Shown here: in pieces, positions 46,753 to 63,466 of the stretch
Numbering within the stretch: the first letter of the stretch is position 1
Layout: each line of letters begins with the position of its first letter
Assembly (NCBI GenBank): GCA_038229875.1
Contig: JBBROA010000001.1
Span: forward strand, 65,955-129,954
Direction: 5' to 3'
Length of the DNA stretch: 64,000 nt
Origin: Thermoanaerobaculia bacterium
GTDB taxonomy: Bacteria; Acidobacteriota; Thermoanaerobaculia; UBA5066; Gp7-AA6
Translations under genes and position numbers: made by a program
The notes under the pieces: model-generated
What the model saw: only the letters and a program-made list of their open reading frames with translations
Told to the model about the DNA's origin: nothing
Databases searched by the model: none

Positions 46753-46800
46753 AAGTCCCGTTCAACGCGTGAGAGTGCCGTTCAACGCGTGAAAGTAGAA
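46741..46800 (+). repeat. Three tandem 20-bp units spanning the MBL stop and the purS start
   Basis: TTCGACGCGTGAAAGTCCCG / TTCAACGCGTGAGAGTGCCG / TTCAACGCGTGAAAGTAGAA. Confidence 0.9.
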
Positions 46801-47028
46801 GTCCGGGTCTATCCGCGGGAGGGGATTCTCGACCCGCAGGGCAAAGCGATCGCCGCCGCCCTCGTGAGGCTCGGGCACGCTTCGGTGGAAAGCGTCCGAG
46901 CGGGGAAAGTGTTCTTCCTGGATGTGGCAGGGGACGACCGGACGAAAGTAGAGGCCGAGGCGCGCCGCATGGCGGAGGAGCTCCTCGCGAACACCGTCAT
47001 CGAGGGCTACGACGTGAGGGTCCTGTGA
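46789..47028 (+). CDS. purS: Phosphoribosylformylglycinamidine synthase subunit PurS
   Basis: 79 aa, MKVEVRVYPREGILDPQGKAIAAAL..LANTVIEGYDVRV. GTG start. Confidence 0.9.
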   Translation: MKVEVRVYPREGILDPQGKAIAAALVRLGHASVESVRAGKVFFLDVAGDDRTKVEAEARRMAEELLANTVIEGYDVRVL

Positions 47029-47062
47029 GCGGCGGCCTCGCCGTCAGCCTTTTTGAAAAGAA

Positions 47063-47761
47063 ATGAAATTCTCTATTGTCGTCTTCCCCGGCTCCAACTG
47101 CGACCAGGACTGCGAGCACGTCGCCCGCGAGCTCCTCGGCTGCGAGGCCGAATACGTGTGGCACGCGGAGACAGACCTGAAGGGCGCGGACGTGGTAATC
47201 ATCCCGGGTGGGTTCGCATACGGCGATTACCTGCGCGCCGGGGCGCTCGCCCGGTTCTCTCCCGTCATGGAGAGCGTCGGCCGCTTCGCGAAGGCGGGGG
47301 GGCCGGTGCTCGGGATCTGCAACGGGTTCCAGGTGCTTCTCGAAGCCGGGCTTCTCCCCGGCGCGATGCGGGTGAACCGCGGCCTTCGCTATGTCTGCCG
47401 CGACGTGCACATGCGGGTCCAGAGCTCCGACACACCGTTCACGCGGCTGTACGAGGAGGGGTCCGTCGTCCGCATGCCGATCGGACACATGGAAGGCAAC
47501 TACACGGCTCCGCTCTCGGTGCTCGACGAGCTCGAGCGGGAAGGCCGGGTGATCTTCCGTTACAGCGACGAGCTCGGCGGCATCACCGACGCCGCGAATC
47601 CGAATGGCGCGGATCGCGGGATCGCCGGCATCTGTAGCCGGGAACGCAACGTCCTCGGCCTGATGCCGCACCCGGACCGGTGCGCCGAAGGCCTTCTCGG
47701 CAACGACACGGGCCTGAAGATGTTTCAGTCCGCCGTCGAGAGCCTCGCCGTCAGTCATTGA
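47063..47761 (+). CDS. purQ: Phosphoribosylformylglycinamidine synthase glutaminase subunit PurQ
   Basis: [16 protein letters not shown].., ..[14 protein letters not shown].., catalytic Cys in GICNGFQVL, ..MPHPDR.. Confidence 0.92.
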
Positions 47762-47812: not shown

Positions 47813-48511
47813 TCAGGTTCGGGGGTTGAGCACGGCGAGAAAGGAGAGCTGGGCGGCGACGCAGAACGCCCACACCCCGAAGCTCAGGCAGAGCGCTCCG
47901 CCCGGCCGGAGCATGCCCTGGCTTGAGAGACCGCGCGCCACAACGATCACGAACCAGAGATCGAACAGGTTGATGTCGTTTAGGAGCGTGAAGACGAGCA
48001 GAGGCGCATGGGGAAAGAAAAGTGCGAGCCCGATTGCGGGCTGCAGGTCCGCCATCTCCCGGACGGCTCCGGGAGTCCGGATCGCCAGAATGAGCAGGAC
48101 GAACCAGGACGCGAAAAGCGTCGTCAGCATCGCCGTGGACATGAGCGACAGAGCCTCCCGGTAGCGCGCCGTCCCGGTCAAGACGAGCACGCCCAGATAG
48201 AGGAGAGCGCCCAGCAGCAAAACTTTGCCAACGATCGCCAACGAGCCCCCGAGGAGCCCGACGCTTTGCGCCAGCGAAAAGCGCTCAAGAGCCGCCGAGA
48301 CCTCCTCCGCGGTGAAGCCGGCGGGAAGGCTCAAGACCAGCGCAGCGCGCAGGAACGGCCGCTGAAGAATCTGGACGGAGGCGGTTCCCATCAGAAGAAG
48401 AACGAGAGGAAGCACCAGGGAGGGCGAACCGACCGGGTGTTTGTCCGACCGCCCGGCGCACGCCAGCCTCCGAAAAACGAAGGAGGCGCCGGACAATCTG
48501 TTCTCGCTCAC
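47813..48511 (-). CDS. Yip1-like polytopic membrane protein
   Basis: Five hydrophobic helices (..LAIVGKVLLLGALLYLGVLVL.., ..LFASWFVLLILAI.., ..LWFVIVVARGL.., ..LSFGVWAFCVAAQLSFLAVL). Start GTG 48511 overlaps the TGA of the upstream permease gene. Confidence 0.55.
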   Translation of the reverse strand: MSENRLSGASFVFRRLACAGRSDKHPVGSPSLVLPLVLLLMGTASVQILQRPFLRAALVLSLPAGFTAEEVSAALERFSLAQSVGLLGGSLAIVGKVLLLGALLYLGVLVLTGTARYREALSLMSTAMLTTLFASWFVLLILAIRTPGAVREMADLQPAIGLALFFPHAPLLVFTLLNDINLFDLWFVIVVARGLSSQGMLRPGGALCLSFGVWAFCVAAQLSFLAVLNPRT

Positions 48512-50118
48512 GCGCCGCCCGCCGTACCCGGGTCCGGGCGTCCGAGAAGGCGCGCCTCGAAGAGCTCGAACGATCCGGAAATTCGGCGGTCGGCGGCTCG
48601 AAGCGAGGCCCAATAGAGCGAGGCTGCCGCGAGAGCCATCGCGCCGAGCGAGACCGGGCGCGGGACTCTCTCCAGACGATCCACAGCTCGCACCAGAAAG
48701 AGAAAACCGGGCGCGCCGATCAGGAAGAGCAACGTGGCTGCGTAGGCTGGGGCCGAGTTTCCGCTGGAGGAAGTTTTTCGGAGGACACTCGGCTGCGGAA
48801 ATCGTGCAGAGCTCCAGTTGAACAGCGCGAATACCAGTGCGAAAAACGTCTCGAGAAAGATCCAGAACATGCCGTCGAGGAGCGTCCGGACAAGACCCGC
48901 GAATAGAAGACCGGCGAAGGCGCCCGCGTGGATCAGAACCAGGAGGACGGTGTTCTTGACCCGGAGCACACGAACAATGGAGAGGCCGCTCGCACGATAC
49001 AGGCGCACGCCCCGGCCGTCGGGACCGAACGAGTTCGCCGCGAGTCCGAGAATCGAGAGCGTCCAGAGGATCGTCAGGGCCAAGGCCTGCTCACGCGGTT
49101 TTTCGAGCGCCCTGAGGAGCCCGCGCGTGTCGTTAAACCACACCGAACGGCTGAACGGTGCGGCGGCCACGAACGCGATCAGCATTCCGAGGGTCAGCCG
49201 GCCCACGCCTGTCCGAACAAGCGAACGCCACTCCTTTGCAGCGAGCGCCCGGTTGAGACCGCCTCGTGCAAGGGTCGCGTTGGACCGAAAGCCTGCGGAA
49301 TGCGCTCGGGGCTCGATCATGCGTCGCGCCACGCGCCAGCCCACGCTGAAGAGTCCGGCACAAATGACAATCAGGAGCATGACTGCCACACAGTCGACGG
49401 GTGCGAAGCGACCGGCGGCGAGGCGGGACAGGAGATCCGCCGTCCTACGATCCGGCAGCAGACTGCCGGCAACAATCGGCCACTGGATCCCGACGGCTTC
49501 GAGAAGGATCATTGCCGCCGCGGCAAACTGCACTCGACTTGCGAACCGTCCCATCAGTCCCGTATGGAGAAGGGCGGCCGCCACGAGAGAAAATGTGAAG
49601 AACGCGCAAGCCCCTATGGCGATGAAGGCGCGGTGACGCAAAGGGAGCCCCGGAAGAGAGGCGAGGCCAGCCGCGTAACCCGCGTACAGCGCCGAGAGCA
49701 GAAGGACGCCGGGCGAGGATACGATCTTGCCCAGGGTAACGAGCCAGATCTCGGCGGAAGTGAACGGCAGATCCCGCAGCGTCCCAATAAAGTGAGAACC
49801 TCTTCCGGCGGAGACCGCGGCGGAGAGCAGGCAGCCCAGGAAAAAGATGGAGCAGATCACTCGGCTGACGAGGGGAATACCGAGAGCTGGATCTCGAGAG
49901 GCGACCGTCGCCATCCCCGCGGCGGCCGCAGTGGCCAGCAACGCCAGGCACCCCAGAAGGAGCAGGCCGGCGGCGATTGCAAAACGGTCGGCCGGTCTGC
50001 GAGACCTCCACGTGTTCGCGGCGATACGGGCGGACGCCCACGCTACCGCTCGCAACGCCCCCGACCCGACTCCGGAGACCGGGCGGCGGGGGATTGGAGG
50101 GCACAAGGCGGAGGTCAC
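48508..50118 (-). CDS. Large polytopic membrane protein, putative ABC exporter permease
   Basis: 536 aa with about 12 hydrophobic segments. GTGA overlap with the ABC ATPase gene. I recognise no named family motif. Confidence 0.6.
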   Translation of the reverse strand: MTSALCPPIPRRPVSGVGSGALRAVAWASARIAANTWRSRRPADRFAIAAGLLLLGCLALLATAAAAGMATVASRDPALGIPLVSRVICSIFFLGCLLSAAVSAGRGSHFIGTLRDLPFTSAEIWLVTLGKIVSSPGVLLLSALYAGYAAGLASLPGLPLRHRAFIAIGACAFFTFSLVAAALLHTGLMGRFASRVQFAAAAMILLEAVGIQWPIVAGSLLPDRRTADLLSRLAAGRFAPVDCVAVMLLIVICAGLFSVGWRVARRMIEPRAHSAGFRSNATLARGGLNRALAAKEWRSLVRTGVGRLTLGMLIAFVAAAPFSRSVWFNDTRGLLRALEKPREQALALTILWTLSILGLAANSFGPDGRGVRLYRASGLSIVRVLRVKNTVLLVLIHAGAFAGLLFAGLVRTLLDGMFWIFLETFFALVFALFNWSSARFPQPSVLRKTSSSGNSAPAYAATLLFLIGAPGFLFLVRAVDRLERVPRPVSLGAMALAAASLYWASLRAADRRISGSFELFEARLLGRPDPGTAGGA

Positions 50119-50879
50119 GCCCAGCTCAATTTCGGCAGGCGGTCGCCGTCGATCCGGAGGCTCTCGAGAACCACGGCCTCGAGGGGTCGCTCCCGATCCG
50201 TCCCCCGTTCGAGCAGGGTCGTGAGAGATCCCTGCGCCACGAGCGTGCCGCCATCAAGGATTCCGATGTCCGTGCAGATCGCTTCCGCCAGCCGGACGGA
50301 ATTCGAGGTCAGAAAGATCGTCACGCCTCGCGCGCGAAGGTCGGCCAGGAGGCGCTCGATGACGATGCGGGAGCGGGTATCGACGCCTTCGAGGGGCTCG
50401 TCGAGCACGAGAAGCTCGGGATCGGCGATCAGGGCCGCGGCGAGGGCGGTCTTCTTTCTCATGCCGTACGAATAGCCCGCGACGAGCCGGTCAGCCGCGG
50501 TCTCGAGATCCAGGATTTCGAGAAGCTCCTTTCTGCGTCCATCCTCGATCGCGGGATCGATGCCGTAGAGACGCGCCGCGAAGGAGATCTGCTCCGAACC
50601 CGTCAGGTACTCGAAGAGTGCGAGCTCCTCCGAGAGGTATCCGATACGCCGCAGGAGGTTCCTGTCGTTTCCCCTGAGCTGAGTTCCGAACAGGAAGATT
50701 TCTCCGGCAGATGCCGCGGCAACCCCGGTGAGAAGCCTCGCCGTGGTCGTCTTGCCGGCGCCGTTGGCTCCGAGAAGACCGTAGCAGGCGCCCCGCTCCA
50801 CCTCCAGGTCGAGCTTCTCGAGCACTTTCGTCGATCCGAAGCTCTTTGAGATCCCGACGGTTCGGACGGCAGCGCTCAC
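50115..50879 (-). CDS. ABC transporter ATP-binding protein (ABC-2 type)
   Basis: Walker A GANGAGKTT, degenerate signature YSYGMRKKTALAAAL, Walker B LLVLDEPLEG. Start set at GTG 50879, 6 nt after GGAGG. The upstream part of ORF 50115..51035 is an artefact. Confidence 0.85.
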   Translation of the reverse strand: MSAAVRTVGISKSFGSTKVLEKLDLEVERGACYGLLGANGAGKTTTARLLTGVAAASAGEIFLFGTQLRGNDRNLLRRIGYLSEELALFEYLTGSEQISFAARLYGIDPAIEDGRRKELLEILDLETAADRLVAGYSYGMRKKTALAAALIADPELLVLDEPLEGVDTRSRIVIERLLADLRARGVTIFLTSNSVRLAEAICTDIGILDGGTLVAQGSLTTLLERGTDRERPLEAVVLESLRIDGDRLPKLSWA

Positions 50880-50890
50880 TTCCACCCTCC

Positions 50891-50929
50891 ATAAAAGTTG
50901 CGGTTGGCTGCGCGCGCGGCCAACCGCAA
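50891..50929 (-). terminator. Strong hairpin plus CTTTTAT immediately 3' of the peptide gene (terminator/attenuator before the ABC genes)
   Basis: Perfect 11-bp inverted repeat, TTGCGGTTGGC (50898-50908) / GCCAACCGCAA (50919-50929), extendable through the GC-alternating loop. On the minus strand it is followed by CTTTTAT. Confidence 0.6.
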
Positions 50930-50934
50930 GAGAC

Positions 50935-51237
50935 TTACGAAACGCAAGTATGGAGTTCCGCCGTGAGGCCCAAGCCTCCCGCCCCGACGACCGCTCCGAC
51001 GAAGATGGCGCCCGTTCCTGCCGTGAGAACGCCAACGCCGACCACGAGAGCGGATGCCGCCGCGAACGTGAACGCGCAAGCCCAGAACGATCCGCCCTGA
51101 ATCGACTCGAGCTGCGCAGAGCTCAGCGAAGTCTGAGCCGCCAGGCGCGTTTGCGAGACGGGGGCCGAGCCCGCCGAAGCGGACGATGTCAGTGCAAGGA
51201 ACGATGCGAGGACGCAGAGTCCAATGATTCTATTCAT
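50935..51237 (-). CDS. Double-glycine-motif bacteriocin/microcin-like precursor peptide with N-terminal Sec-type signal
   Basis: MNRIIGLCVLASFLALTSSASA/GSAPVSQTRLAAQTSLSSAQLESIQGG/SFWACAFTFAAASALVVGVGVLTAGTGAIFVGAVVGAGGLGLTAELHTCVS. LSSAQLESIQGG fits the LSxxELxxIxGG consensus. The Gly/Ala-rich hydrophobic 51-aa tail carries 2 Cys. SD GGAGGTGA lies upstream. ATGA overlap with the C39 gene. Confidence 0.7.
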   Translation of the reverse strand: MNRIIGLCVLASFLALTSSASAGSAPVSQTRLAAQTSLSSAQLESIQGGSFWACAFTFAAASALVVGVGVLTAGTGAIFVGAVVGAGGLGLTAELHTCVS

Positions 51238-51953
51238 ATGTCACCTCCCTTCGATTGAGATACCGCTCGGAGCGTTCCTGCCGGACGTGGCAGGAAAAAC
51301 GGCTCGACGTCCCGAGCCGTTTTCCGCAAAGGGAATCCCTCCGAGTCTGCAAGGATCAGCGCGTCGCCGGTCCAGTGCCTCTCGAAGGCCGCGCGAGAGA
51401 AACGCAGATGCCCGATTGCAGAATCGAGAACGTGAAATCCGAAGTCTCCGGCCGGCGAGGGGATGACAACTACGAAATGCGAATAGGCGAGGTGCGCCAG
51501 CCAGGGTATCGAGGACGGCGGAGTTTTCGACGTCGAGCGGACGCCGGCGAGATCGACTCCGAGCGCGCGGGCCGCATCGCGAAGCGCTCTCATGGACGCC
51601 CGACTGTCGATCGGAATCAGCGCGGGGATGGCGGCGCAGAGGTCGCCCCTGCCGGACGATCGAAGCAGATTGCAGAGAGCTGCGGCGCCGCAGTTGTTTT
51701 TCGAATCCTGGAGCACGAGGTCATCCCTTCCGACGAGCCGCGCTCCCAAAATTACCGCCCGGGCGCTCGGCGTGAGGAGCCGCACGGAGGCGTTCCAGAG
51801 TCCGAAAAGCGCTCCCACCGCGGCAATTGCGACAATGGATCGGCGTACGAGTTTTATAGTGGCTCCCTTCGGGAGCGCAGATGCGCCGCCGCCTCCCGCG
51901 CCGCCCCCGGGCCCGTCCAGACGGAAGCGAGCTTTCCTTGACGGTCGATCCAT
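51234..51953 (-). CDS. Stand-alone membrane-anchored C39-family cysteine peptidase
   Basis: Q-x5-C in LQDSKNNCGAAALCNL, His in AYSHFVVVI, Asp in HVLDSAIG. The K/R-rich N-terminus plus a single TM helix (IVAIAAVGALFGLW) predicts an outward-facing domain. Start at ATG 51953 is tentative; it overlaps the thioredoxin gene by 100 nt. Confidence 0.75.
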   Translation of the reverse strand: MDRPSRKARFRLDGPGGGAGGGGASALPKGATIKLVRRSIVAIAAVGALFGLWNASVRLLTPSARAVILGARLVGRDDLVLQDSKNNCGAAALCNLLRSSGRGDLCAAIPALIPIDSRASMRALRDAARALGVDLAGVRSTSKTPPSSIPWLAHLAYSHFVVVIPSPAGDFGFHVLDSAIGHLRFSRAAFERHWTGDALILADSEGFPLRKTARDVEPFFLPRPAGTLRAVSQSKGGDI

Positions 51954-52381
51954 GCGACGGCGGGCACCCGGGTGACACCGAGATCTGACCAGGGGAGCGC
52001 GGTCCTCGCGTGACGGATTCGCCCGGAAACGCCGAGAAGTCCGAGCGCCGGGGTCCGCGTGACCAGGAACAGCGCCGCGCCGGAGGTTCCCTCGAGCTCG
52101 CGTTGCAGGCCGGGGAGCACCTCCACACAGCTCGAGCAATCAGGATCCGCGAACAGCAGGAGCGTCGGTTTTCCGAGGAGGTCCTTCGAAGAGATTCGCA
52201 CGCCGTCGTCTAAGCTGAGAACGAAATCCGGCGCGGATCTCGGGAACGAGGCCGGTCGGGCGCCCCGGACATCGCGTCCGAAGAGAACCAGCAGGACGAG
52301 CGACCCGAAGGAGACGAGCGCGAGGAGGAAACCTGCCATGCGGCGCGGCGACGACTGCGCGAGCTCGAAGATGCCTTTCAT
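51854..52381 (-). CDS. TlpA-like membrane-anchored thioredoxin-fold protein
   Basis: MKGIFELAQSSPRRMAGFLLALVSFGSLVLLVLFG (N-in anchor), then ..KPTLLLFADPDCSSCVEVLP.. (CxxC redoxin motif). Confidence 0.8.
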   Translation of the reverse strand: MKGIFELAQSSPRRMAGFLLALVSFGSLVLLVLFGRDVRGARPASFPRSAPDFVLSLDDGVRISSKDLLGKPTLLLFADPDCSSCVEVLPGLQRELEGTSGAALFLVTRTPALGLLGVSGRIRHARTALPWSDLGVTRVPAVAWIDRQGKLASVWTGPGAAREAAAHLRSRREPL

Positions 52382-52617: not shown

Positions 52618-53376
52618 ATGATCCCAGCATTTTTCACGCTTGCCCTGCTTGCGGCCGTTTCCCCACCGGATCCGGGCGCTATCTCCTCCGGCGGCGCCGT
52701 CTACTCGTCGCATCTCATGGTCGACCAGGAAGTCCTCGTGTCTTCCCGCATCACCGGGATCATTTCGACGATCTCGGTCGATCGGGGAACCCAGGTCGTC
52801 AAGGGGCAGCCGCTCGCGACTCTGGATCAGCGGGAGGCGGAGAGCGAGGTCCGGCAGGCGAAGGAAGACATGGAACTGCGCCGGGCGGAGTTCGAACGGC
52901 AGAAAACGCTCTCCGGGCTGAACCTCGGGTCCGTCGCGGACCTCGACACGGCGCGGGCGCGGCACGCGGTGGCTTCCGCGGCCTTCGACAAGGCCAGGAC
53001 GCTGCGGGACTACACCGTGATCCGCGCCCCCTTCAACGGCGTCGTGACGGACAAGCTGGCGCGCGTCGGGCAGAAGGTGGTCGACATCCAGAACCAGCCG
53101 CTCTTCAAGGTGACCGCCCTCGAACCGCTGCTCGCGCGGATCTACGTGCCCGACAGGGACCTCGGAGGCTTGAAGCGCGGCGACTCGGTGGAGATCGTGG
53201 CGGCCAATGCGCCCGCCGTGCGCGCCTCCGCGCGCGTCGAGTACATCAGCCCGACGGTCGACGCCGGCAGCGCGACGGTCGAGGTGATCGTGCGGGTGGG
53301 GCACAATCCGTCGCCGGCGACGCTCCGGCCGGGAGTCGCCGTCGAAGTCCGTCTGCCGGCTTCGCGCCGCCCGTGA
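52618..53376 (+). CDS. Short HlyD/RND-adaptor-like periplasmic protein
   Basis: N-terminal anchor, then a barrel-sandwich/lipoyl-like region: ..VSSRITGIISTISVDRGTQVVKGQPLATLD.., ..YTVIRAPFNGVVTDKLARVGQKV.. Confidence 0.75.
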   Translation: MIPAFFTLALLAAVSPPDPGAISSGGAVYSSHLMVDQEVLVSSRITGIISTISVDRGTQVVKGQPLATLDQREAESEVRQAKEDMELRRAEFERQKTLSGLNLGSVADLDTARARHAVASAAFDKARTLRDYTVIRAPFNGVVTDKLARVGQKVVDIQNQPLFKVTALEPLLARIYVPDRDLGGLKRGDSVEIVAANAPAVRASARVEYISPTVDAGSATVEVIVRVGHNPSPATLRPGVAVEVRLPASRRP

Positions 53377-54092: not shown

Positions 54093-55462
54093 GCGCCGCG
54101 AACCGTCCGCTCGGGCGCCTCCTGGTGGTCGAGGACGATCCGATCCTCTTAGACCAGCTCACCTGGGCGCTCAAGGGGTCCTTCGACGTGATCTCGGCGT
54201 CGGACGCCGACGCGGGACGCGCTCTCTTCAATTCCGAGCTGGATCTCTTCCTCTTCGACCTGCGGCTCCCGCCGAGCGGCCGCGTCGAGGAGGGGTTCGC
54301 CCTGCTCCAGGAGGCGCGACGCCGAAATCCCGACGCGACGGTCGTCGTGATGTCGGGAGAGGCCGACCGGAGCGCGGCCCTGCACGCGATCGAGCTCGGC
54401 GCCTTCGACTTTTTCCGGAAGCCGCTCGACCCGGCGGAGGTGAAGATCATCCTGAAGCGGGCTCTCGAGCGCCGCCGCCTGGTCGTCGAGAATCAGGAGC
54501 TGCGCGAGCAGGCGCGGGACCAGAAATCGTTCGACCGCCTGATCGGCGAGAGCCCGGAAATGAAGCGGCTGTTCCGGGAGATCGAGCAGGTTGCACCGTC
54601 GGACGCGACCGTCATGATCCAGGGCGAGAGCGGCACCGGCAAGGAGCTCGTCGCCCACTCGATCCACGAGCGAAGCCCGAGAGCGGCCCGGGCGTTCGTC
54701 GCGATCAACGCCTCCGGTTTTCCAGACACGCTCGCGGAATCCGAGCTCTTCGGACACGAGCGGGGAGCCTTCACGGGCGCCGTCACGTCGCGGCCGGGCC
54801 GCTTCGAGCTCGCTCACGGCGGCACGCTGTTCTTAGACGAAATCGGGACCCTGTCCCCCGCGGTGCAGGCGAAGCTGCTCCGGGTGCTCGAAACGCGGGA
54901 GCTCGAGCGCGTCGGCGGGCGCCGCACCGTGCCGGTTGATTTCCGCCTGGTGACGGCGACCAACGAAGATCTCGAGGCTCGGGTGGCCTCCGGCGCGTTT
55001 CGCGAGGACCTTTTCTACAGGATCAACACGGTCCCCATCCGCATCCCCCCGCTGCGCGATCGGGGCAGGGACCTCCAACTCCTCGCAGAGCACTTTCTCG
55101 CGCGTTTCTCCGCCAAACACGGCCGCGGTCAGAAAACGCTTTCCCCGTCCGCGCTCGAAAAGCTCCAGCGTCACCCTTGGAAGGGAAACGTGCGGGAGCT
55201 CGAGCACGTGATCGAGATGCTGGTTCTTTTTTCCGAGTCGGACGCCATCGAGGAAGAAGACCTGCCTCGCGTCTTTCGGTCTGAGCCGGCGAGGCCCGGA
55301 AACGAGCCGTCGGTCCGGTTTTCCGACGCGGTCCGCGAGCACCAACGGCGGCTCCTCGCGGACGCGATCGAGCGCGCCGGCGGCGTGAAGGCGGAGGCGG
55401 CCCGACAGCTCGGACTCGACGCGAACCAGATCAAATACCTCTGCCGCAAGCACGGCCTCTGA
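54089..55462 (+). CDS. Sigma-54-dependent response regulator (NtrC family)
   Basis: GTGA overlap. Receiver domain (LLVVEDD..LFLFDLRLPP), GESGTGKE, ESELFGHERGAFTGAV, and a C-terminal HTH (..AARQLGLDANQIKYLCRKHGL). Confidence 0.9.
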   Translation: MSAANRPLGRLLVVEDDPILLDQLTWALKGSFDVISASDADAGRALFNSELDLFLFDLRLPPSGRVEEGFALLQEARRRNPDATVVVMSGEADRSAALHAIELGAFDFFRKPLDPAEVKIILKRALERRRLVVENQELREQARDQKSFDRLIGESPEMKRLFREIEQVAPSDATVMIQGESGTGKELVAHSIHERSPRAARAFVAINASGFPDTLAESELFGHERGAFTGAVTSRPGRFELAHGGTLFLDEIGTLSPAVQAKLLRVLETRELERVGGRRTVPVDFRLVTATNEDLEARVASGAFREDLFYRINTVPIRIPPLRDRGRDLQLLAEHFLARFSAKHGRGQKTLSPSALEKLQRHPWKGNVRELEHVIEMLVLFSESDAIEEEDLPRVFRSEPARPGNEPSVRFSDAVREHQRRLLADAIERAGGVKAEAARQLGLDANQIKYLCRKHGL

Positions 55463-55570: not shown

Positions 55571-55586
55571 TGGCCCCGACCTTGCG
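55571..55586 (+). promoter_or_regulatory. Sigma-54 (-24/-12) promoter for the pentapeptide-repeat gene
   Basis: TGGCCCCGACCTTGCG matches TGGCAC-N5-TTGC in register (GG 55572-73, GC 55584-85). AGGAGG at 55602-07 and ATG at 55614 follow at the expected distances. A sigma-54 activator gene lies immediately upstream. Confidence 0.75.
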
Positions 55587-55613
55587 ATGGAGAGAGGGAA
55601 AGAGGAGGCCACC

Positions 55614-56141
55614 ATGGCAAATGAAGTCAGGATCAAGCTCACAGACGCCCAGAAGGCGAAGATCAAGTCGGCGACCGGCAGGGAGATGAACGAGATCCGC
55701 CTCGGCAACCTGAGCAGCGGTCCTTCCGCGACGCCCGCCAAGAAAACGATGACTGCTCGCGCCCAGACCGCGCGCGCGCAGACCGCCCGGGCGGAAACGG
55801 CCCGCGCGCAGACCGCTCGCTCAGAGACGGCCCGCGCCCAGACCGCGCGCTCCGAAACGGCTCGCGCCCAGACCGCTCGTTCCGAGACCGCCCGCGCTCA
55901 GACGGCTCGCGCCGAGACCGCTCGTTCCCAGACCGCTCGCGCCGAGACCGCTCGCGCTCAGACGACCCGCGCGGAGACGGCCCGGTCACAGACTGCCCGC
56001 GCCGAGACCGCCCGCTCGCAGACCGCGCGCGCGCAGACCGCTCGGGCTGAGACGGCCCGCGCGCAGACGGCCAGGGCGGAGACCGCGCGCGCGCAGACTT
56101 CGAGGGCGCAGACCTCCCGCGCGGATTCCGAGAACCTGTAA
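55614..56141 (+). CDS. Pentapeptide tandem-repeat protein, (A-R-A/S-Q/E-T) x24, with 47-aa unique N-terminus
   Basis: MANEVRIKLTDAQKAKIKSATGREMNEIRLGNLSSGPSATPAKKTMT, then ARAQT ARAQT ARAET ARAQT ARSET .. SRAQT SRADSENL. Start taken at ATG 55614 (SD AGGAGG 6 nt upstream), because ATG 55587 lies inside the promoter. Confidence 0.75.
   Translation: MANEVRIKLTDAQKAKIKSATGREMNEIRLGNLSSGPSATPAKKTMTARAQTARAQTARAETARAQTARSETARAQTARSETARAQTARSETARAQTARAETARSQTARAETARAQTTRAETARSQTARAETARSQTARAQTARAETARAQTARAETARAQTSRAQTSRADSENL
55755..56114 (+). repeat. 24 tandem 15-bp coding repeats
   Basis: Units such as gctcgcgcccagacc / gcgcgcgcgcagacc / gcccgggcggaaacg. Many differences are synonymous (Ala gct/gcg/gcc, Arg cgc/cgg/cgt/agg), so the peptide is conserved more strongly than the DNA. 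Confidence 0.9.
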
Positions 56142-56219: not shown

Positions 56220-58427
56220 TCACCAAACCAGCGTGCGGACCCAGCGCGTCAAAACCACGAGGGCGCGGCCCGCATAGGAGGACCGGCGCGAATAGATCCG
56301 GGCCCGCACGACGGACCCGGGACGCAGACGGCCGTCCGCGTTGTCGAACATCGCGACCGCCACGAACCGCTCGGGTGTGCCGGAGGGAAGCGGTGGCTCC
56401 GCGAGCCCCGCCCCCGTCACGGGCTGATCGACGGTCGCCGCGGAGATGCTGACGATCTTTCCGATGACCGGCTCGAGCGGCCGCTGGGGGGACAACGCCT
56501 TCACGCGCGCGCCCTTCTCGAGAGAGTCGAGCAGCCTCTCGGAAACGGGCAGCTCGGCGATGAGACGCGTGCAGTCTCCGACCTCCGCGAGCACGGTCCC
56601 CGCCGCGACCATCCGGGCCGCGAGGTCCTGCACATCCGGCGTCAGAACCCTTCCGGCGATCGGAGAACGGACGTCGAGGCGTTCCTCGGTGGCGCGGGCG
56701 CCGCGCAGCCCTTCCTGCGAAGCGTCAGACCGCCGCTCCGCCTCGTACACCGCGCTCGCGCCTCCCCTCTCTCGGGCAAGGTTCGCGGCAAATCGCAGCC
56801 GCCCCGACTGCTCCGCAAAATGAGAGACGCGCGCCTGAGCCGCCATGTTTTTGAGTCGAAAGAGCTCGCGTCCCGCGGGCACGTTGTCGCCCTCTCGGAC
56901 CAGAACTTCCGCAACCGATGCGTCCTCGGGCGCCTGAAGACGCACGACCTTCGCGGGCCGCAGCACCGCTTCGGCGGAGATCGTTCGGCGGCTCCACGGC
57001 ACGAGAAGGACGAGCAGCAGGATGGCTCCGGCGATCGCTAGAGGCCGGCGGCTTCGGGAGGACATGAGGAACTCCTTCTTGTCCAGGTAAAAGAGCCGCG
57101 CCGTGCGGGTCACGAGACGGACCCGCTTGCGAAAGACTCGATAGAGGGTCAGGAGCAGAAGAACGACGGCGACCCCGGGGAAATACTTCGAATAGAAGTT
57201 GTAGAAGAGACCGGCGATGAATCGCATGATCACCGTCGTGTAAGCGAGCGCGAGCGTTCCATAGATCCAGTAGATCCGCCGCTTGCGGCGCGAGACCGCC
57301 GGCCGCGGGACCGGGAGTCTCAAGATCCGGCTCTGAAACTGCGCTCCGAGGTACTGGAACGCTTCCTCGCGAAGCTCCGGCATCTCGACAAGGCTCGTCA
57401 GCGCGTAATAGCCGTCGATCTTGATGAGCGGGTTGATATTGAAGAAGATCGTCGAGACCCCGGTGAAGAGCATCGTCTTGTAGGCGAGCTCGTGGAGGAG
57501 CGTGTCGGGGTACGACGCGACCCACATGGCCGTCGCGCCGGCGCAGATGAAGCCTTCCACGTAGATGCCGGCCGTCGTCGTCCAGAGGCGATGCCACTTG
57601 TTCTGGAACATGATCGCGTCGGTCGTGTCGCAGTAAAACGCCGGGGTGAAATAAAGGAGCGCCAGGCCGATGTCGTGGACCTCTCCTCCGTAAACTTTCG
57701 TCGCGAACGCGTGGCCGAATTCGTGAATGCCGCCGATCACGCACAGGATGATGAAGAATTGCAGCACGTCGATGAGCGGCTTGTGCAGAAACGCGTAGAG
57801 CTCGTACGTCCCGGTCCAGATCGGTGCCCAGTGAAGAACGAAGACTCCGATCGTCCAGGCGACGGCGATGATCCAGAGAACGACGACGGGCGGCGTCCAG
57901 AGCCACCGCACGTAGCGGACTGTGCGGTCCAGGAACCGGTCGGGGTCGAAGACGTGGAACTTCATGAAAAAGGGATTGAAGCCCTCGGCTTTCGCGTCGG
58001 CGGCGCGTTTGCGGTCCGTCCTCGAGCGGCTCAAGAGCAGGAGGCTGCGTTCGGCAGAGGAGCGCTCGAGAAGCTCGGTGTTGCGGAGCATTTCTTCGTA
58101 CTCGAGGGCAAAGACGGTGTCGATGCTCGCTCTGGGAAAAATTCGGTTGTATTCCGCGGCGATCTCCTCGGTCGTGCGGGTCCCGTCGAAGAGCTCGATG
58201 ATTCCCCATTCGGAGTCGCTGAACGTGTAGTACGCGTCGCGCTCCTGGTTCTTGACCACCCACGTCACCTCGCCCATCCGGACGACGCGGCGAATGACCA
58301 GCTGCTTCGCGAGCGCCGGACGGTCCGAAGCTTGCCCGTGCCGCGCGGCGAGGAGCTCGGCGCCTCTCTCCGGTGCGGTCGCCGAAAGGAGCGGGACCGC
58401 CGGTGAGCGCGCGCCCGGCGCGGTCAT
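56220..58427 (-). CDS. PqqD-like (RRE) domain - M50 site-2-protease-like membrane domain - HlyD adaptor fusion protein
   Basis: The N-terminal ..YYTFSDSEWGIIELFDGTRTTEEIAAEYNRIFPR.. parallels PqqD ..[31 protein letters not shown]. HExxH in GGIHEFGHAFA, second M50 motif FNINPLIKIDGYY, several TM helices, then a HlyD barrel-sandwich (..VAEVLVREGDNVPAGRELFRL.., ..VRSPIAGRVLTP..). Start ATG 58427 overlaps the upstream stop (ATGA). Confidence 0.8.
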   Translation of the reverse strand: MTAPGARSPAVPLLSATAPERGAELLAARHGQASDRPALAKQLVIRRVVRMGEVTWVVKNQERDAYYTFSDSEWGIIELFDGTRTTEEIAAEYNRIFPRASIDTVFALEYEEMLRNTELLERSSAERSLLLLSRSRTDRKRAADAKAEGFNPFFMKFHVFDPDRFLDRTVRYVRWLWTPPVVVLWIIAVAWTIGVFVLHWAPIWTGTYELYAFLHKPLIDVLQFFIILCVIGGIHEFGHAFATKVYGGEVHDIGLALLYFTPAFYCDTTDAIMFQNKWHRLWTTTAGIYVEGFICAGATAMWVASYPDTLLHELAYKTMLFTGVSTIFFNINPLIKIDGYYALTSLVEMPELREEAFQYLGAQFQSRILRLPVPRPAVSRRKRRIYWIYGTLALAYTTVIMRFIAGLFYNFYSKYFPGVAVVLLLLTLYRVFRKRVRLVTRTARLFYLDKKEFLMSSRSRRPLAIAGAILLLVLLVPWSRRTISAEAVLRPAKVVRLQAPEDASVAEVLVREGDNVPAGRELFRLKNMAAQARVSHFAEQSGRLRFAANLARERGGASAVYEAERRSDASQEGLRGARATEERLDVRSPIAGRVLTPDVQDLAARMVAAGTVLAEVGDCTRLIAELPVSERLLDSLEKGARVKALSPQRPLEPVIGKIVSISAATVDQPVTGAGLAEPPLPSGTPERFVAVAMFDNADGRLRPGSVVRARIYSRRSSYAGRALVVLTRWVRTLVW

Positions 58428-60832
58428 GGGAGCAGGGGCCAGAGCTTTGCGTAGAGCCATCGCGACGGCTTCCGCAGAAGCAACGTCGCAATCTTGCGGT
58501 CTCCGGCGCTGATCTTCGCGCGACCGAGCATCCCGGTCTTCAGAGAACCGTCGGGGTTCGGCAGGGTCAGTTCGGCCACCACGAAGCGTTCCTTCCCCTC
58601 TTCGCGGATACGCGCGCCGACGCGGGAGATCTCTCCGCGGAAGGTGCGGGTCGGATAAGGGTTCAGTTTGACGTCCACCCGCTGCCCCGCCTTCAACAGG
58701 GAGGAGTCCTCTTCCGGCACGGCGACCTCGACGGTCACCGAGCCCACGTCCGCGATCACGCAGAACTCGGCGCCGCGGGGAAGGTTCTGCCCGATGCGCT
58801 CCTCGAGGCGCGGTGTCACGATGACTCCGGCGGCGGGTGCCCGCAACCGCGTCGCATCGAACCGCTCCTGCTCCATGGCGATCCGGGCTTCGAGCTCGTC
58901 GACGCGGGACTGAGCGTCGAACAGGCCCCCGGCGTTTCCCGTCCCTCGCTGCGTCGCGACGTCTCTCGCCGCGATCGCATGAGCGGACTGTGCGTCCGCC
59001 AGCGCGGACCGGTAGCTCTCGTCGTTCACCGTCGCGATGACTTCTCCCTTCGGGACGACCTCACCCTCTCGGTGCATCACCGAGGCGACGATGCCCTCCG
59101 CTCCCGCCGTCACCACGCTGCGGCGGCCTGGCAGCACGCGTGCCGCTCCGCCGACCCGCAGCCGCCACGGGACCAGGAAGAGGATCGCCGCGAGCGCGAT
59201 CGCCCCCGCCGCCCACGCAAGCCGGCGCCGGCGCGGGATCGCCATCAGGCGGGTCCGGCGGGCGAGGAGGGGTTTCCAGAAGCCCGCGAGAGGGACCTGC
59301 TGGTAAAGCTGGGCGTTGCGAACCGCCACCGTCGCCTGGTTGACGAGTATCTGCAGGAGGTCGCGCGTTTCCGCGTCGAAGACGATCGGCTCCCGTGACT
59401 CGAAAGCGAGGACCCCGAGCTTTCCCTCCTCGTCCTTCAGGGTGACGGCATAGAACGCCTTGAGCCCCTGCTCGTTGAACAGCGTCCGGAACTTTTCTTC
59501 GGTCTCCGGCCGATCGGAGGTCAGGGTTCCGTCTTCGCGCTCGGTGACGTTGACGTCGGACCCCGAGAGGAACACCCACTGGAGGAACTCCTCGGTTCGC
59601 CGGATCTCCGGACTGCGCCGGTCGATTTCCGTGGTGCCCGACACCGCTCCGAGCCGCAGCCGTCCTCCCTGCTGGATCGCCATGGCGCAGCGGTCGTACC
59701 GGATGAGGGCGGCCGAGGCGTTGACGACGGTCTGCATCACGCGGTCGAGGTCGAGCGTGGCAGTGATCTCGCGGCTGACGGCGAGGAGCGCGTCGAGCTC
59801 TTCGACTTTCTTTTCGGCTTCGAATTGGCGCGCGTTGCGGAGGGCCCGCACTGCCTGCCGGGCGAGGTCTTCGAGAAGCTCCTGGTCTTCTTCCGAGAAA
59901 TCCGGAACCCGGCCGCGTTTGTTGACGAGAACGAGCGCGCCCAAGGGGACGTCCTGCTCGATGAGCGCGACCCCCAGGGCCGACCGCACGGGAAACTCCG
60001 GAGCCGACATCGGGTCGTCGGAGGAGATGCGATTCCGCCGGAGCGCCGCGCCTTCGGCGAGCAGGTCGCCCACCAGGCCGCCGCCGACTGAGGGCGGCGG
60101 ATTGACGACGTCGTAGCTCTCGTTGATGGCGGTGGCGGCGAGCTCGACCGAATCCGCGTGCGCGTCGAGCAGCCAGAGAGAACCGGCCTCCGCGCCGGCG
60201 AAGTCGACCGCCTTGCGGACGATGATTTCATTCAGCTCGGACCACTCGAGGGTCGATCCGAACGCTTTCGAAAGATCGTAGAGAGCGGTCAGGCGCTCGA
60301 TGGCCTGGCGCATGCCCGCGGTCTTCCGCTCGGACTTGACCGCGCGCCCGAGGGCCTTCGCCGCCTGCACGAGGAGCCCCTCCAGCCGTTCGGCCACGGT
60401 GTGCGCCTGCGGGGGCTCGGTGAAGAGAAGCGTCAGGATCGCGGGGACGGCGCCCTCCGCCTCCGCCGCGACGAACAGCACCCATTCGACGCCGGCGGGC
60501 GAGGCCGGCAGCCAGGCTGCGCCTCGCGATTCCATGTCCGCGCGGGACAGCAGGAGGGGAGCCCGGTCCCGGAGGAGCTCGCCGGCGATCGGGTCCTCAC
60601 GCGCGACGCTTCTCTTGAGGTTCGGCCGCGCACCTTCGCCCGTCCCGCCGGTGCACACGAAGAGCGGGTGCGTCGGGTCAGGCGTCCAGACGAGAACCGT
60701 AGGGGCTCCGCTGGCTCGAGACACCCAGCGCGCCGCCCATGACGAGGTCTGCGCCAGGTTTTCGCATTCCGCGAGCTCGGAAACCGCCGAGTCGATCGGC
60801 TTCCCGGCGGAGCTCCCCGGTTCTTCCGCCAT
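58424..60832 (-). CDS. Triple-GAF - TM - HlyD adaptor fusion protein
   Basis: Three GAF-like modules (..LTALYDLSKAFGSTLEWSELNEIIVRKAVDFAGAEAGSLWLLD.., ..LDALLAVSREITATLDLDRVMQTVVNASAALIRYDRCAM..), a TM helix (LAWAAGAIALAAILFLVPW), then HlyD (..GIVASVMHREGEVVPKGEVIATV.., ..LRAPAAGVIVTP..). Confidence 0.8.
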   Translation of the reverse strand: MAEEPGSSAGKPIDSAVSELAECENLAQTSSWAARWVSRASGAPTVLVWTPDPTHPLFVCTGGTGEGARPNLKRSVAREDPIAGELLRDRAPLLLSRADMESRGAAWLPASPAGVEWVLFVAAEAEGAVPAILTLLFTEPPQAHTVAERLEGLLVQAAKALGRAVKSERKTAGMRQAIERLTALYDLSKAFGSTLEWSELNEIIVRKAVDFAGAEAGSLWLLDAHADSVELAATAINESYDVVNPPPSVGGGLVGDLLAEGAALRRNRISSDDPMSAPEFPVRSALGVALIEQDVPLGALVLVNKRGRVPDFSEEDQELLEDLARQAVRALRNARQFEAEKKVEELDALLAVSREITATLDLDRVMQTVVNASAALIRYDRCAMAIQQGGRLRLGAVSGTTEIDRRSPEIRRTEEFLQWVFLSGSDVNVTEREDGTLTSDRPETEEKFRTLFNEQGLKAFYAVTLKDEEGKLGVLAFESREPIVFDAETRDLLQILVNQATVAVRNAQLYQQVPLAGFWKPLLARRTRLMAIPRRRRLAWAAGAIALAAILFLVPWRLRVGGAARVLPGRRSVVTAGAEGIVASVMHREGEVVPKGEVIATVNDESYRSALADAQSAHAIAARDVATQRGTGNAGGLFDAQSRVDELEARIAMEQERFDATRLRAPAAGVIVTPRLEERIGQNLPRGAEFCVIADVGSVTVEVAVPEEDSSLLKAGQRVDVKLNPYPTRTFRGEISRVGARIREEGKERFVVAELTLPNPDGSLKTGMLGRAKISAGDRKIATLLLRKPSRWLYAKLWPLLP

Positions 60833-60837: not shown

Positions 60838-61173
60838 CTAGAAGCTCGCCGCCGCCGTCTCCAGGTTTTCGTAGATCTCGAATACGGAATCGAGCCGGGT
60901 CATCTCCAGCAGCTTCTTGACCTGCGGCTCGACGCCGACGAGCTTCGTCTGACCACCTTCGTTCTGCGACGTAGTCATCGCGCGAACGAGGGCGCCGAGT
61001 CCCGAGCTGTCGAGAAACCGGACGGCGGAGAGGTCGACGACGATCCTGGAGCGCCCCTGCTCGAGCAGGCGCGCAACGGTCTTCTTGAAGAGGGTCTCGG
61101 GTTCGCCGATCACGAGATCCCCGTCGACGATCAGGATCGTGACCGGCCCGTCTTCGCGTGTCGAGAGCTGCAT
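60838..61173 (-). CDS. STAS-domain protein (anti-sigma-factor antagonist family)
   Basis: ..[21 protein letters not shown].. 111 aa. Confidence 0.85.
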
Positions 61174-61252
61174 GTTGGAGGGCGATTATGTCAAAAAGTC
61201 ACGCCGCGTCGAGTGCGTATCGGAGCCGTATACTCCAGCGCCGAACCGCCGC

Positions 61253-63466
61253 ATGACGATCACCCCCGAGCTCGTCGCCGAGCACAACCTTTCTGCCGAG
61301 GAGTACGGGCGGATCATCGTGATCCTGGGGCGTGAGCCTAACTACGTCGAGCTCGGCATCTTTTCGGCCATGTGGAGCGAGCACTGCTCCTACAAGTCCT
61401 CCCGCGTGCACTTGAAGACCTTCCCGACGAAGGGGCCACGCGTCATACAGGGGCCGGGCGAGAACGCGGGGATCGTCGACATCGGCGACGGGCTGGCCGT
61501 GGCATTCAAGATGGAGTCGCACAACCACCCGTCGTTCATCGAGCCGTACCAGGGTGCCGCGACGGGGGTCGGGGGGATCCTTCGGGACATCTTCACCATG
61601 GGGGCGCGGCCGATCGCGTCCTTGAACTCGCTGCGGTTCGGTTCCCTGGACGCGCCCCGGATGAAGCACATCGTCGACGGGGTCGTCCGTGGAATCGCGG
61701 GATACGGAAACTGCATGGGCGTCCCGACGGTGGGCGGCGAGACGACGTTTCACCCGGCCTACAACGGCAACATTCTCGTGAACGTCTTCAACGCCGGGAT
61801 CGTGCGCGCGGACCGGATCTTCCTGGGTCGGGCGGAGGGAGCCGGAAATCCGGTCGTTTACGTGGGCTCGAAGACGGGACGCGACGGGATCCATGGCGCG
61901 ACGATGGCGTCCGAGGAGTTCGCGGGCGACGAGACGAAACAGAAGCGGCCGAACGTCCAGGTGGGCGATCCGTTTACCGAGAAGCTTCTCCTCGAGGCGT
62001 GCCTCGAGCTCTTCGCCACCGACGCGGTCGTCGGCATCCAGGACATGGGAGCCGCGGGGCTGACGTCCTCCACCTTCGAGATGGCGGGCCGCGCCGGCAG
62101 CGGCGTCGAGATCGATCTGTCGAAGGTTCCAGTGCGCGAAACGGGAATGACGCCTTACGAGATCATGCTGTCGGAGTCGCAGGAACGGATGCTCCTCGTC
62201 TGCCATCGCGACCGCCTCCCGCAGGTCCTCGCGATCTTCCGCAAGTGGGAGCTCGACGCGGTCGAGATCGGAATGGTGACGGACACCGGCCGGGTCGTCC
62301 TCTTCTTCGCCGGAGAGAAAGTTGCCGACCTACCAGCGGCGCCTCTGGCCGACGAGGCCCCCGTCTACGACCGGCCGCGGCGTCCCGCGCCGGCCCCTCC
62401 TCCGCCGCTCTGGCCGGGGGAGCCGGAGCCCGCGGACTACACCGGGTGCCTTCGCGGGATCCTCTCATCCCCGAACGTCGCCGAGAAGTCTTGGATCTGG
62501 ACGCAGTACGACCACATGGTCGGCACGAATACCGTCGAGCGGCCCGGTGGCGACGCCGCCGTGGTGCGGGTGAAGGGCACCCGCAAGGCGCTCGTTTTGA
62601 AGTCGGACGTGAATCCCTTTTTCTGCGCGCTCGACCCTTACCGCGGGGCCGCGATCGCCGTGGCGGAAGCCGCGCGATCGATCGCGTGCGCCGGCGGACG
62701 GCCGCTCGCGATCACGGACTGCCTGAACTTCGGCAATCCCGAGAAGCCGGAGGTCATGGCGCAGTTCGAGGCGGCGGTGCGCGGCATCTCGGACGCCTGC
62801 CGCGCCTTCGACATTCCTGTCGTCTCCGGGAACGTCTCCTTCTACAACGAGACCGACGGGCGCGCGATTCCGCCGACGCCGACCGTCGGGATGGTCGGGC
62901 TTCTCGAAGACGTCGAGCGGCGGGTGCAGATGGGCTTCCGGGCGGCCGGCGACCGCGTCGCCCTCCTGGGCGTCACCCGCGACGAGCTCGGCGGCAGCGA
63001 GTTTCTCCGCGTCGTGCGGGGAAGAGACGAAGGGCCGTGCCCGGATCTCGATCTCGGCGCCGAGCGGCGGCTTTCATCCCTTCTGGCCGATCTCGCGGAA
63101 GCGGGCCTCCTGGCCTCCGCGCACGACCTCTCCGATGGGGGTCTGGCCGTCGCGGCCGCGGAATGCGCGATGATCTCAGGCTTTGGCGCCGCCCTGGAGC
63201 TTTCGGGGTCTCTGCGGACGTCCGCGCTGCTGTTCGGCGAGAGCACGGGCCGCGCTCTGATCTCCTTCCGCCCCGACGAGGAGCCGGCGATCGTTCAGGC
63301 GGCGAAAAAATCTTCCGTGTCGTTCGAATCGATCGGAACCGTCGGCGACGTCGCATTGGTGATCCGCCAGCAGGGCCGGGTGGTTCTCGACGCGGACCTC
63401 GTCGAAACGACCGGAATCTGGCGCCGCGCCTTTCGCCGGTCGATCGAGTCCGCCGACTTGCTCTGA
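61253..63466 (+). CDS. purL: Phosphoribosylformylglycinamidine synthase subunit PurL
   Basis: ..[18 protein letters not shown].., ..[28 protein letters not shown].. Start at ATG 61253 (MTITPELV..). Confidence 0.92.

Follow-up and report, generated by a model that had tools for sequence, protein, structure and literature searches.

Sec signal peptides and double-glycine (GG) leaders are textbook alternatives. Enterocin P and other Sec-dependent class II bacteriocins, for instance, have a classical signal peptide and use it for export through Sec. In the pediocin PA-1 and sublancin systems, both leader removal, which takes place in the cytoplasm, and export of the peptide are the work of a peptidase-containing ATP-binding cassette (ABC) transporter (PCAT), and there is no Sec signal; thioredoxin-fold proteins, PedC for pediocin PA-1 and BdbA and BdbB for sublancin, are found beside these GG-leader peptides, the activity of which requires disulfides. 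In glycocins, too, nested disulfides hold a helix-loop-helix hairpin together. SDP of Bacillus subtilis is made from a Sec-exported precursor, SdpC, which is cut a second time after export and receives a disulfide, and a Yip1-family protein together with an ABC system (YknWXYZ) protects the cell. Microcin PDI has two GG-type leaders and no Sec signal (PMC5311971), and bufferins are peptides made on ribosomes and modified after translation (RiPPs) with Sec signals (PMC11626156). FapD, from the Pseudomonas Fap amyloid system, is a stand-alone C39 peptidase with a Sec signal that is active in the periplasm and acts on a Sec-exported partner; neither what it cleaves nor where it cuts is known, and canonical GG leaders are absent from the Fap proteins (PMC5557850). 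Here, we describe a minus-strand gene cluster in a 64,000-nucleotide stretch (the window) of contig JBBROA010000001.1 from a Thermoanaerobaculia bacterium (Acidobacteriota; GenBank assembly GCA_038229875.1). Genes for a thioredoxin-fold CxxC protein (the redoxin), a stand-alone C39 peptidase, and a 100-residue precursor peptide are linked in it through overlapping stop and start codons (52381..50935). From their sequence features, we think it rather probable that the cluster is an operon that makes a small, bacteriocin-like hydrophobic peptide and that maturation of this peptide has shifted to the outer side of the cytoplasmic membrane.

The C39 domains of PCAT/AMS transporters (LahT, ComA, PCAT1, and CvaB) have in common with the present enzyme the fold family, the Q/C/H/D residue set, and a GG leader with hydrophobic residues at positions -4, -7, and -12. 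The C39 peptidase here is unfused, however, and has an export signal or anchor of its own, and its substrate carries a Sec signal ahead of the leader; therefore, cleavage would follow translocation instead of preceding it. An earlier note on this DNA, made from the sequence alone, had not recognized such a pathway as described. A periplasmic C39 is not wholly without precedent, as FapD is known to be active there (PMC5557850), and it was the only such case we found. FapD belongs to amyloid secretion through FapF, whereas the present cluster would make small Cys-stapled peptides. The other systems differ in further ways. Compared with the class II bacteriocin and glycocin clusters, the present cluster has no glycosyltransferase gene. 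SDP maturation proceeds via SdpA and SdpB, with no C39 and no GG leader, and the likeness of our Yip1/YknW-like protein to the NCBIfam YknW_fam model is weak (E value of 6.5e-5; 22.5 bits versus a cutoff of 110). Bacteriocins of the enterocin P type and bufferins have the signal peptide only, without a second GG-type leader and without a C39 peptidase. A full-text literature search, with subscription journals mostly outside it, turned up no account in which a Sec signal and a GG leader are combined with an exported C39 peptidase. The arrangement would amount to class II bacteriocin-like maturation moved out of the cytoplasm and placed in series with Sec.

The three genes lie where the earlier note had put them, as does the hairpin behind them, and the peptide sequence is exactly as quoted there (Table 1). 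The precursor has three parts. Residues 1 to 22 form a Sec-type signal (MNR / IIGLCVLASFLAL / TSSASA) with n, h, and c regions, residues 23 to 49 form a leader (GSAPVSQTRLAAQTS-LSSAQLESIQGG) closing in GG, and residues 50 to 100 form a Gly/Ala-rich two-helix core (SFWAC...HTCVS). The double-glycine consensus that the note had read at residues 38 to 49 was borne out: L38-S-S-A-Q-L43-E-S-I46-Q-G48-G49 matches LSxxELxxIxGG at 6 of the 7 specified positions. The broader pattern of Gly at -2, Gly, Ala, or Ser at -1, and a hydrophobic residue at -4 is also present (I46-Q-G48-G49). ComA recognizes the motif L(-12)-x3-E(-8)-L(-7) before GG (PMC6363468). At positions -12, -8, and -7, the window peptide has L, Q, and L (and I at -4), the peptide of locus L001 (L numbers denote loci of the census described below) has L, E, and L, which fits the ComA motif exactly, and that of L005 has V, D, and L. 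A classical leader would start at the initiator Met without a Sec signal; here, a 22-residue signal with A-S-A stands ahead of the leader. The 51-residue tail was found to contain exactly two Cys residues, Cys54 and Cys98, as the note had stated, and there is one more, Cys8, in the signal region. An AlphaFold2 model built from a 3-sequence alignment (pLDDT of 47), which we used for secondary structure alone, has helices at residues 2 to 20, 40 to 45, 49 to 71, and 76 to 98.

Curated leader and bacteriocin models in NCBIfam and Pfam gave no match to the window peptide even at E values of ≤10; its homologues gave only subthreshold matches (E values of 0.05 to 0.17), which fell on the leader region. 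We further scanned the 64-kb window and the first 12 loci in six frames for a signal-like N terminus followed by [hydrophobic]xG[GAS] and then a hydrophobic Cys-containing segment. The matching open reading frames (ORFs) adjoin C39 genes only. All three Thermoanaerobaculia-type precursors (window, homologue P0002, and L005 5331-5642) have Cys8 within the hydrophobic core of the signal, in a context (IGLC, IAVC, and IAFC) that does not match the lipobox. A lipoprotein signal was ruled out, as the conserved Cys8 comes too early and the residue at -1 is L, V, or F, and a Tat signal was ruled out by the absence of the RR motif.

The peptidase was confirmed as a C39 enzyme with the full Q/C/H/D set. 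PF03412 matches it with 42.2 bits (gathering score of 22) at residues 79 to 204 of its 239-residue form, and Q50, C56, H127, and D145 (numbering of the 207-residue form) are invariant in a 40-sequence alignment. Also in agreement with the earlier note, it is not fused to an ABC exporter. The protein has 207 residues (239 from an upstream ATG) and ends at the peptide gene, where its TGA stop codon overlaps the peptide ATG (ATGA), and it scores far under the cutoffs of the PCAT/AMS models (TIGR03796, 26.3 bits versus 853; TIGR01193, 16.3 bits versus 524). The solved structures that the 40-sequence profile matches best are those of LahT150 (6mpz; E value of 1.7e-27), PCAT1 (1.9e-25), and ComA (9e-21), while the inactive C39-like domain of HlyB reaches only 1.8e-7 with the family profile. 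Because the top profile matches are solved double-glycine peptidases and HlyB is far behind, members of this family should cut GG-type leaders. None of the curated NCBIfam models covers the family, and those for the stand-alone enzymes FapD, PA2778, and FilB scored far below their cutoffs. Membership in the FapD family (NF058616) was rejected, with 18.1 bits versus a cutoff of 330 and no fap genes nearby.

The C39 protein begins with MKLVRRS and a hydrophobic segment, which are followed by the catalytic domain. Membrane integration was estimated with a crude, position-independent sum on the Hessa scale, and the segment gave +2.5 kcal/mol. The K/R-rich N terminus and the hydrophobic segment described in the earlier note are present, but the stable transmembrane anchor that it proposed is less likely, and the segment looks signal-like instead. 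An exhaustive HMMER search of 1.84 billion representatives (50% identity) returned 462 relatives at E values of ≤1e-3; a word-indexed protein search with the C39 sequence returned near-identical sequences only. Among the best 150 matches, 129 have at most 260 residues, and a hydrophobic 15-mer precedes the catalytic domain in 99 of the 124 members with a Qx4-6C motif. The mean number of K/R residues is 3.2 before this segment and 2.1 in the 15 residues after it, the number before being greater in 56 members, equal in 21, and smaller in 22. No name is attached to any homologue in public sources.

For the redoxin, all the elements that the note had described, an N-terminal anchor and the CxxC motif (DPDCSSC) of an anchored redoxin, were found, together with the cis-Pro of the thioredoxin fold. 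The window protein falls below the gathering scores of AhpC-TSA (23 bits versus 26) and Redoxin (17.8 bits versus 26.6), and its orthologues in L005 and L012 have precomputed AhpC-TSA/Redoxin matches. C82, C85, and cis-Pro P140 are invariant in an alignment of six sequences (window, L001, L005, L012, L008, and L010). The N-terminal segment is strongly hydrophobic (-2.4 kcal/mol) and by this measure is predicted to be a true transmembrane segment. The CxxC dipeptide varies among the orthologues (CSSC, CGNC, CPHC, CALC, CVYC, and CIHC), CPHC being of the DsbA type. The redoxins of L001 (8782-9354) and L005 (4028-4687) have an added C-terminal CSxC motif (SCSECQR and DCSSCER), which the window protein does not have.

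Searching 5.8 billion proteins with the peptide gave two homologues only, a 97%-identical fragment and P0002, a peptide from a Thermoanaerobaculia metagenome-assembled genome (MAG) with 50 to 53% identity. A third peptide lineage, L005, was reached via the neighboring C39 protein, P0017. The cluster order, i.e., redoxin, C39 peptidase, peptide, hairpin, ABC ATPase, large membrane protein, and Yip1-like protein, recurs in L001, which is from a Thermoanaerobaculia MAG, and in L004/L005. Identity among the peptides of these recurring clusters is 50 to 53%, and what is kept in all three lineages is a signal-like N terminus, a variable Pro/Ala/Ser/Thr linker, a GG leader (LSDQELSSAVGG and VSDEDLSSVIGG), FWxC just past the cut site, and a C-terminal Cys. 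The earlier note had made conservation of the GG motif and the two Cys residues next to C39 genes a test of its reading, and both features are conserved in both independent homologues. Stable hairpins of differing sequence occupy the same position after the peptide gene in the window, L001, and L005, the last without a U-tract. In the window, the folding energy is -31.9 kcal/mol (z score of -3.35), and 1 of 200 shuffled sequences folds as well, in accordance with the strong hairpin noted before. The genomic surroundings differ among the three lineages; therefore, the cluster appears to move as a unit. Profile searches with the peptide alignment against genome contigs and with a close C39 alignment against metagenome contigs gave no match.

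We investigated the distribution of this gene combination in a census of 86 loci plus the window, which were collected from contigs encoding individual C39 members and from a scan of GTDB species genomes with a 3-sequence C39 alignment. Peptides were called by the rule of a K/R-containing hydrophobic N terminus, then [hydrophobic]xG[GASN], then a hydrophobic stretch, and the other genes were called by profiles of the cluster proteins. A signal-plus-GG peptide was present in 35 of 59 loci with an anchored stand-alone C39 and in 0 of 16 loci with a transporter-fused C39 (Fisher P = 2e-5, for loci that are not phylogenetically independent). The strict rule overlooks cases that were seen by eye (L001, L006, L046, and L086). 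By the automatic rule, 85 distinct related ORFs, including a few false positives, have a signal ahead of the leader. In about 30 species of Gemmatimonadota, from Longimicrobiales and other groups, genes for an anchored C39 peptidase, a thioredoxin-fold protein, a Yip1-like protein, and an ABC ATPase occur together with one to five tandem, diverged small peptide genes per locus. In the product of each small gene, a signal and a linker lead to D-V-x-G-[GAS], the only part of the leader motif that is kept, and then to a Gly/Ala-rich hairpin carrying CxxC...CxxxC. In 63 distinct related peptides with a mapped cut site, residue -1 is G in 33, A in 21, S in 6, and N in 3, and V occupies -4 in 44; in part, the search rule itself imposed what is seen at -1, -2, and -4. 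Conserved without being imposed by it are D at -5, the choice of V among hydrophobic residues at -4, G or Q at +1, and Trp at +2/+3. Cys residues after the cut site number four in 44 of these peptides and two in 19, and their number is never odd. A locus in low-GC DNA from Neomarinimicrobiota, L046, shows the same design, and the design is thus not an artifact of spurious long ORFs in GC-rich DNA.

Several loci serve as natural controls. In L084 (4746-5420) and L085 (4778-5420), the C39 proteins have 149 to 155 residues, lack a hydrophobic N terminus, and are not fused to a transporter. Their neighbors are peptides of 60 to 65 residues with a canonical GG leader from the initiator region (…LVTDDELRLVRGG/RSFW…), cationic cores (RSFW...KGKF), and no Sec signal. 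This looks like the cytoplasmic arrangement of a free-standing GG peptidase. In L081 to L083 and L086, by comparison, the C39 has a lipoprotein-type signal (…VFGC and …AASC), and the peptides have a signal, then LQDFRGG (LQDYKGG in L086), and then a single Cys-less hydrophobic tail. The redoxin profile matched nothing in any of these four loci. The neighbors in L081 are a large transporter-like protein and, by motif, a carbonic-anhydrase-like protein. In L006 (JGI 3300006845, 561-2562), a 200-residue precursor consists of a signal, a textbook LTDTEMSDITGG leader, and a Cys-rich cargo of 140 residues, and its gene is followed by a DsbA-family gene and then an anchored C39 gene; the exported-C39 route seems to be used also for larger disulfide-rich proteins. 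In these comparisons, the signal on the peptide tracks the signal on the peptidase, and the redoxin tracks paired Cys residues in the core. In Abditibacteriota MAGs (L061, L065, L072, L074, and L080), a signal-bearing C39 adjoins a conserved protein of about 100 residues, which has a Sec signal, ...VVSGAK...EKVDVTG-x-CGC, and a Gly/Pro-rich tail, and then a signal-bearing protein of about 350 residues. These genes appear to form a further exported-C39 system that acts on a different substrate, and the cut site in it is less clear.

We propose the following pathway. The 100-residue precursor would be exported by Sec via its N-terminal signal, and signal peptidase I would probably cut after A-S-A22, leaving the 51-residue core behind a 27-residue leader, which is a normal length for double-glycine leaders. 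The C39 peptidase would be taken across the membrane by a K/R-rich tail and a hydrophobic segment of its own, recognize L(-12)...L(-7)...I(-4)-Q-G-G, and cut after Gly49. The anchored CxxC protein would then join Cys54 to Cys98 and so staple the two ends of a helix-turn-helix. The hairpin may lower read-through into the ABC genes or stabilize the peptide message. The ABC ATPase, the 536-residue membrane protein, and the Yip1/YknW-like protein may shield the producing cell or clear the peptide from its membrane, a role we suggest by analogy with lantibiotic-protection ABC systems and YknWXYZ. The core of this route, Sec export followed by extracytoplasmic GG cleavage and oxidation by the anchored CxxC protein, was the one implied in the earlier note, and the conservation and covariation from which we infer all of it are consistent with it.

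Some observations weigh against this proposal. Our signal and topology calls come from inspection of n, h, and c regions, K/R counts, the crude hydrophobicity sum, and covariation; the AlphaFold2 model of the peptide is of low confidence; and most of the census loci are from one phylum, Gemmatimonadota, and are not independent. The conserved cluster encodes no outer-membrane export route, and the organism is presumably diderm. In the window, moreover, the C39 start at the conserved position is ATA (51855-51857, overlapping the redoxin TAA stop), where the 90%-identical L002 has GTG (GTGA, 286-288) and L001 has ATG (ATGA, 9352-9354). The sole canonical in-frame start is ATG 51953, which gives the 239-residue form and would add 32 residues to the cytoplasmic tail. 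The gene in the window may have noncanonical initiation, the upstream ATG, or impaired expression, or the ATA may be a sequencing or population variant. Finally, the Hessa-scale sum for core helix 1 of the window peptide is borderline (+0.4 kcal/mol, and -1.3 in L005), and the product might therefore stay in the inner membrane of the producer. The values are compatible with passage through SecYEG to the periplasm and may also fit retention in the membrane.

The last point leads to the main rival explanation, in which the 100-residue product is not a released toxin but a resident small membrane protein of three helices, or of two after signal removal, for example, a subunit or regulator of the ABC/Yip1 proteins, and the C39 cut serves its maturation or turnover. 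The two hydrophobic core helices and the missing outer-membrane export component would fit such a protein, and in clusters of the Thermoanaerobaculia type, the peptide never occurs without the ABC ATPase, the large membrane protein, and the Yip1-like protein. We nevertheless hold this explanation to be unlikely. Related loci have two to five tandem, strongly diverged paralogues, a pattern typical of a bacteriocin arsenal and not of structural subunits; for core helix 2, integration is not predicted (+2.2 to +2.9 kcal/mol; +2.2 in the window); and the conserved GG leader implies a pro-form activated by cleavage. Furthermore, L010 has peptides, C39, redoxin, and a Yip1-like protein, and its sole nearby ABC ATPase gene is upstream on the opposite strand, beside a MacB-type permease gene.

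The redoxin might also have another client. TlpA/ResA-type proteins are usually reductants. The redoxin could serve the protease and not the peptide, because this is the habit of its presumed class and a C39 toxin domain needs reducing conditions, its self-processing being observed under these conditions only (bioRxiv 10.64898/2026.05.07.723447). This is a further point against the pathway as drawn, and it can be extended to a variant in which everything else is the same, the redoxin reduces the catalytic Cys of the exported C39, and the peptide disulfide forms spontaneously or via housekeeping Dsb proteins. The nearest named relatives of the window redoxin, ResA and MauD-type proteins, fit the variant, albeit as weak matches. 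Several comparisons speak for a role in peptide oxidation instead: L081 to L083 have an exported C39 with Cys-less peptides and no redoxin gene, L006 has a DsbA-family protein in place of the redoxin, the CxxC dipeptide is not conserved and includes the DsbA-type form, and the core Cys counts are strictly even. FapD, too, is periplasmic, and the Fap study describes no dedicated reductase (PMC5557850). We consider the variant improbable. The remaining possibility is canonical processing, with the C39 facing the cytoplasm, a peptide N terminus that is not a Sec signal, and export of the cleaved core by the downstream ABC transporter. All biochemically characterized double-glycine peptidases of the LahT/ComA/PCAT1 type are cytoplasmic (PMC6363468), an ABC transporter gene does adjoin the peptide gene, and the K/R bias of the C39 family is only moderate. 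Yet the GG site lies 27 residues past a textbook n/h/c signal with A-S-A, and the C39 N terminus has the shape of a signal or type II anchor and is a predicted lipoprotein signal in one branch of the family. Signal-less peptides are the partners of unanchored C39 genes, the redoxins and DsbA-like proteins that accompany the system are anchored enzymes of the extracytoplasmic side, and the ATPase is of the ABC-2 (DrrA/NodI) type and not of the C39-fused exporter type. Cytoplasmic processing therefore seems to us the least probable of these explanations, and the extracytoplasmic pathway remains the one we favor.

The extent of the unit in the earlier note was right for the three genes and the hairpin, but the genes for the ABC ATPase, the large membrane protein, and the Yip1-like protein downstream were overlooked.

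Table 1. Features of the peptide cluster in the window
Feature	Position	Strand	Basis
CxxC thioredoxin-fold protein (redoxin), 175 aa, DPDCSSC	51854..52381	minus	ORF translation, alignment
Stand-alone C39 double-glycine peptidase, 207 aa	51234..51857	minus	PF03412, catalytic residues
Precursor peptide, 100 aa	50935..51237	minus	ORF translation, homologues
GC-rich 11-bp hairpin, then CUUUUAU	50898..50929	minus	predicted folding energy
ABC ATPase, 254 aa, DrrA/NodI-like (ABC-2 type)	50115..50879	minus	PF00005, NCBIfam
Polytopic membrane protein, 536 aa, presumed permease partner of the ATPase	48508..50118	minus	position, orthologues
Yip1/YknW-like membrane protein	47813..48400 (start uncertain; longest ORF to 48613)	minus	weak NCBIfam/Pfam matches

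The ABC ATPase gene starts with GTG and has a GGAGGG ribosome-binding site ahead of it. The protein matches PF00005 (E value of 1.8e-26) and, below their respective cutoffs, the NCBIfam models for the drrA subfamily (5.5e-57) and a lantibiotic-protection ABC protein (5.2e-40), and it is kept in the cluster in L001, L005, and L012. Orthologues of the 536-residue membrane protein are found at the same position in these three loci. This protein had no relative in Pfam, NCBIfam, or the PDB, even when searched as a 4-sequence profile, and a word-indexed search of 5.8 billion proteins matched only the protein itself; it belongs to no described family. The Pfam Yip1 model stays below its gathering score in the window protein and gives a weak match in 5 of 6 cluster orthologues (best E value of 3.1e-6). 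A Yip1 profile matched 37 ORFs over 87 sequences, and in most Gemmatimonadota loci one of them is near the C39 gene. In L001 and L005, a gene for a Cys4 zinc-ribbon-like protein of 79 to 83 residues lies between the permease and Yip1-like genes; it is absent from the window.

In the window, purS/purQ (46789-47761) and purL (61085-63466) are about 13 kb apart, and between them lie the peptide cluster, a two-component system, and HlyD-fusion genes. Third-position GC is 0.74 to 0.79 in the cluster genes versus 0.86 to 0.92 in their neighbors, and this, together with the unrelated contexts in L001 and L005, suggests that the region is an inserted, mobile block. The histidine kinase/response regulator and HlyD-like genes were ruled out as part of the cluster, as they are absent from L001 and L005. 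No sigma-54 promoter was found upstream of the operon despite the adjacent sigma-54 activator, with matches across the window at chance level. A sigma-54-type element, TGGCCC-N5-TTGCG, followed by a GAGGAGG ribosome-binding site and ATG 55614 (window 55571-55616), lies directly 3' of the activator gene (about 54100-55462); given the chance-level frequency of the pattern in the window, its position alone is suggestive. The ORF that starts there (55614-56141) encodes about 24 TARAQ/TARAE-like pentapeptide repeats from a 15-bp tandem array (55758-56123) and has a Pfam GETHR match. Farther on, at 56220-60832 on the minus strand, are a Peptidase_M50 plus HlyD fusion (746 residues) and a tandem GAF plus HlyD fusion (802 residues), and a STAS protein gene lies at 60838-61173. 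Divergent from the peptide operon is a gene for a 252-residue HlyD/RND-adaptor-like protein (52618-53376, plus strand). The HlyD-fusion genes, the STAS gene, and the short HlyD/RND-adaptor-like gene are not conserved in L001 or L005.

The C39 family comprises the 462 representatives given above, and its loci are found in Acidobacteriota, Gemmatimonadota, Neomarinimicrobiota, and proteobacterial MAGs, and also in Abditibacteriota, where the cut site is less clear. We see about equal reason to believe and to doubt that these loci make up a widespread, unnamed class of peptide systems, in which Sec signals and double-glycine leaders are used in series with a dedicated extracytoplasmic C39 peptidase, and the products, helical hairpins closed by one or two disulfides, form a new structural class of bacteriocin made without a PCAT. 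Genome mining sorts precursors into a double-glycine/PCAT group, anchored by fused C39-ABC genes, and a Sec group, and a dual-signal precursor next to a small exported C39 would escape searches for bacteriocins and RiPPs. If the proposal is true, there would be a large unexplored pool of disulfide-stapled hairpin peptides in uncultured soil and sediment phyla, and double-glycine peptidases would be routinely active in an oxidizing compartment, which so far is suggested by FapD alone. Unlike for FapD, the substrate and the cut site are evident from the sequence here, which makes the question directly testable. The module of redoxin, C39 peptidase, and precursor would then also be a compact toolkit for the periplasmic release of disulfide-bonded peptides.

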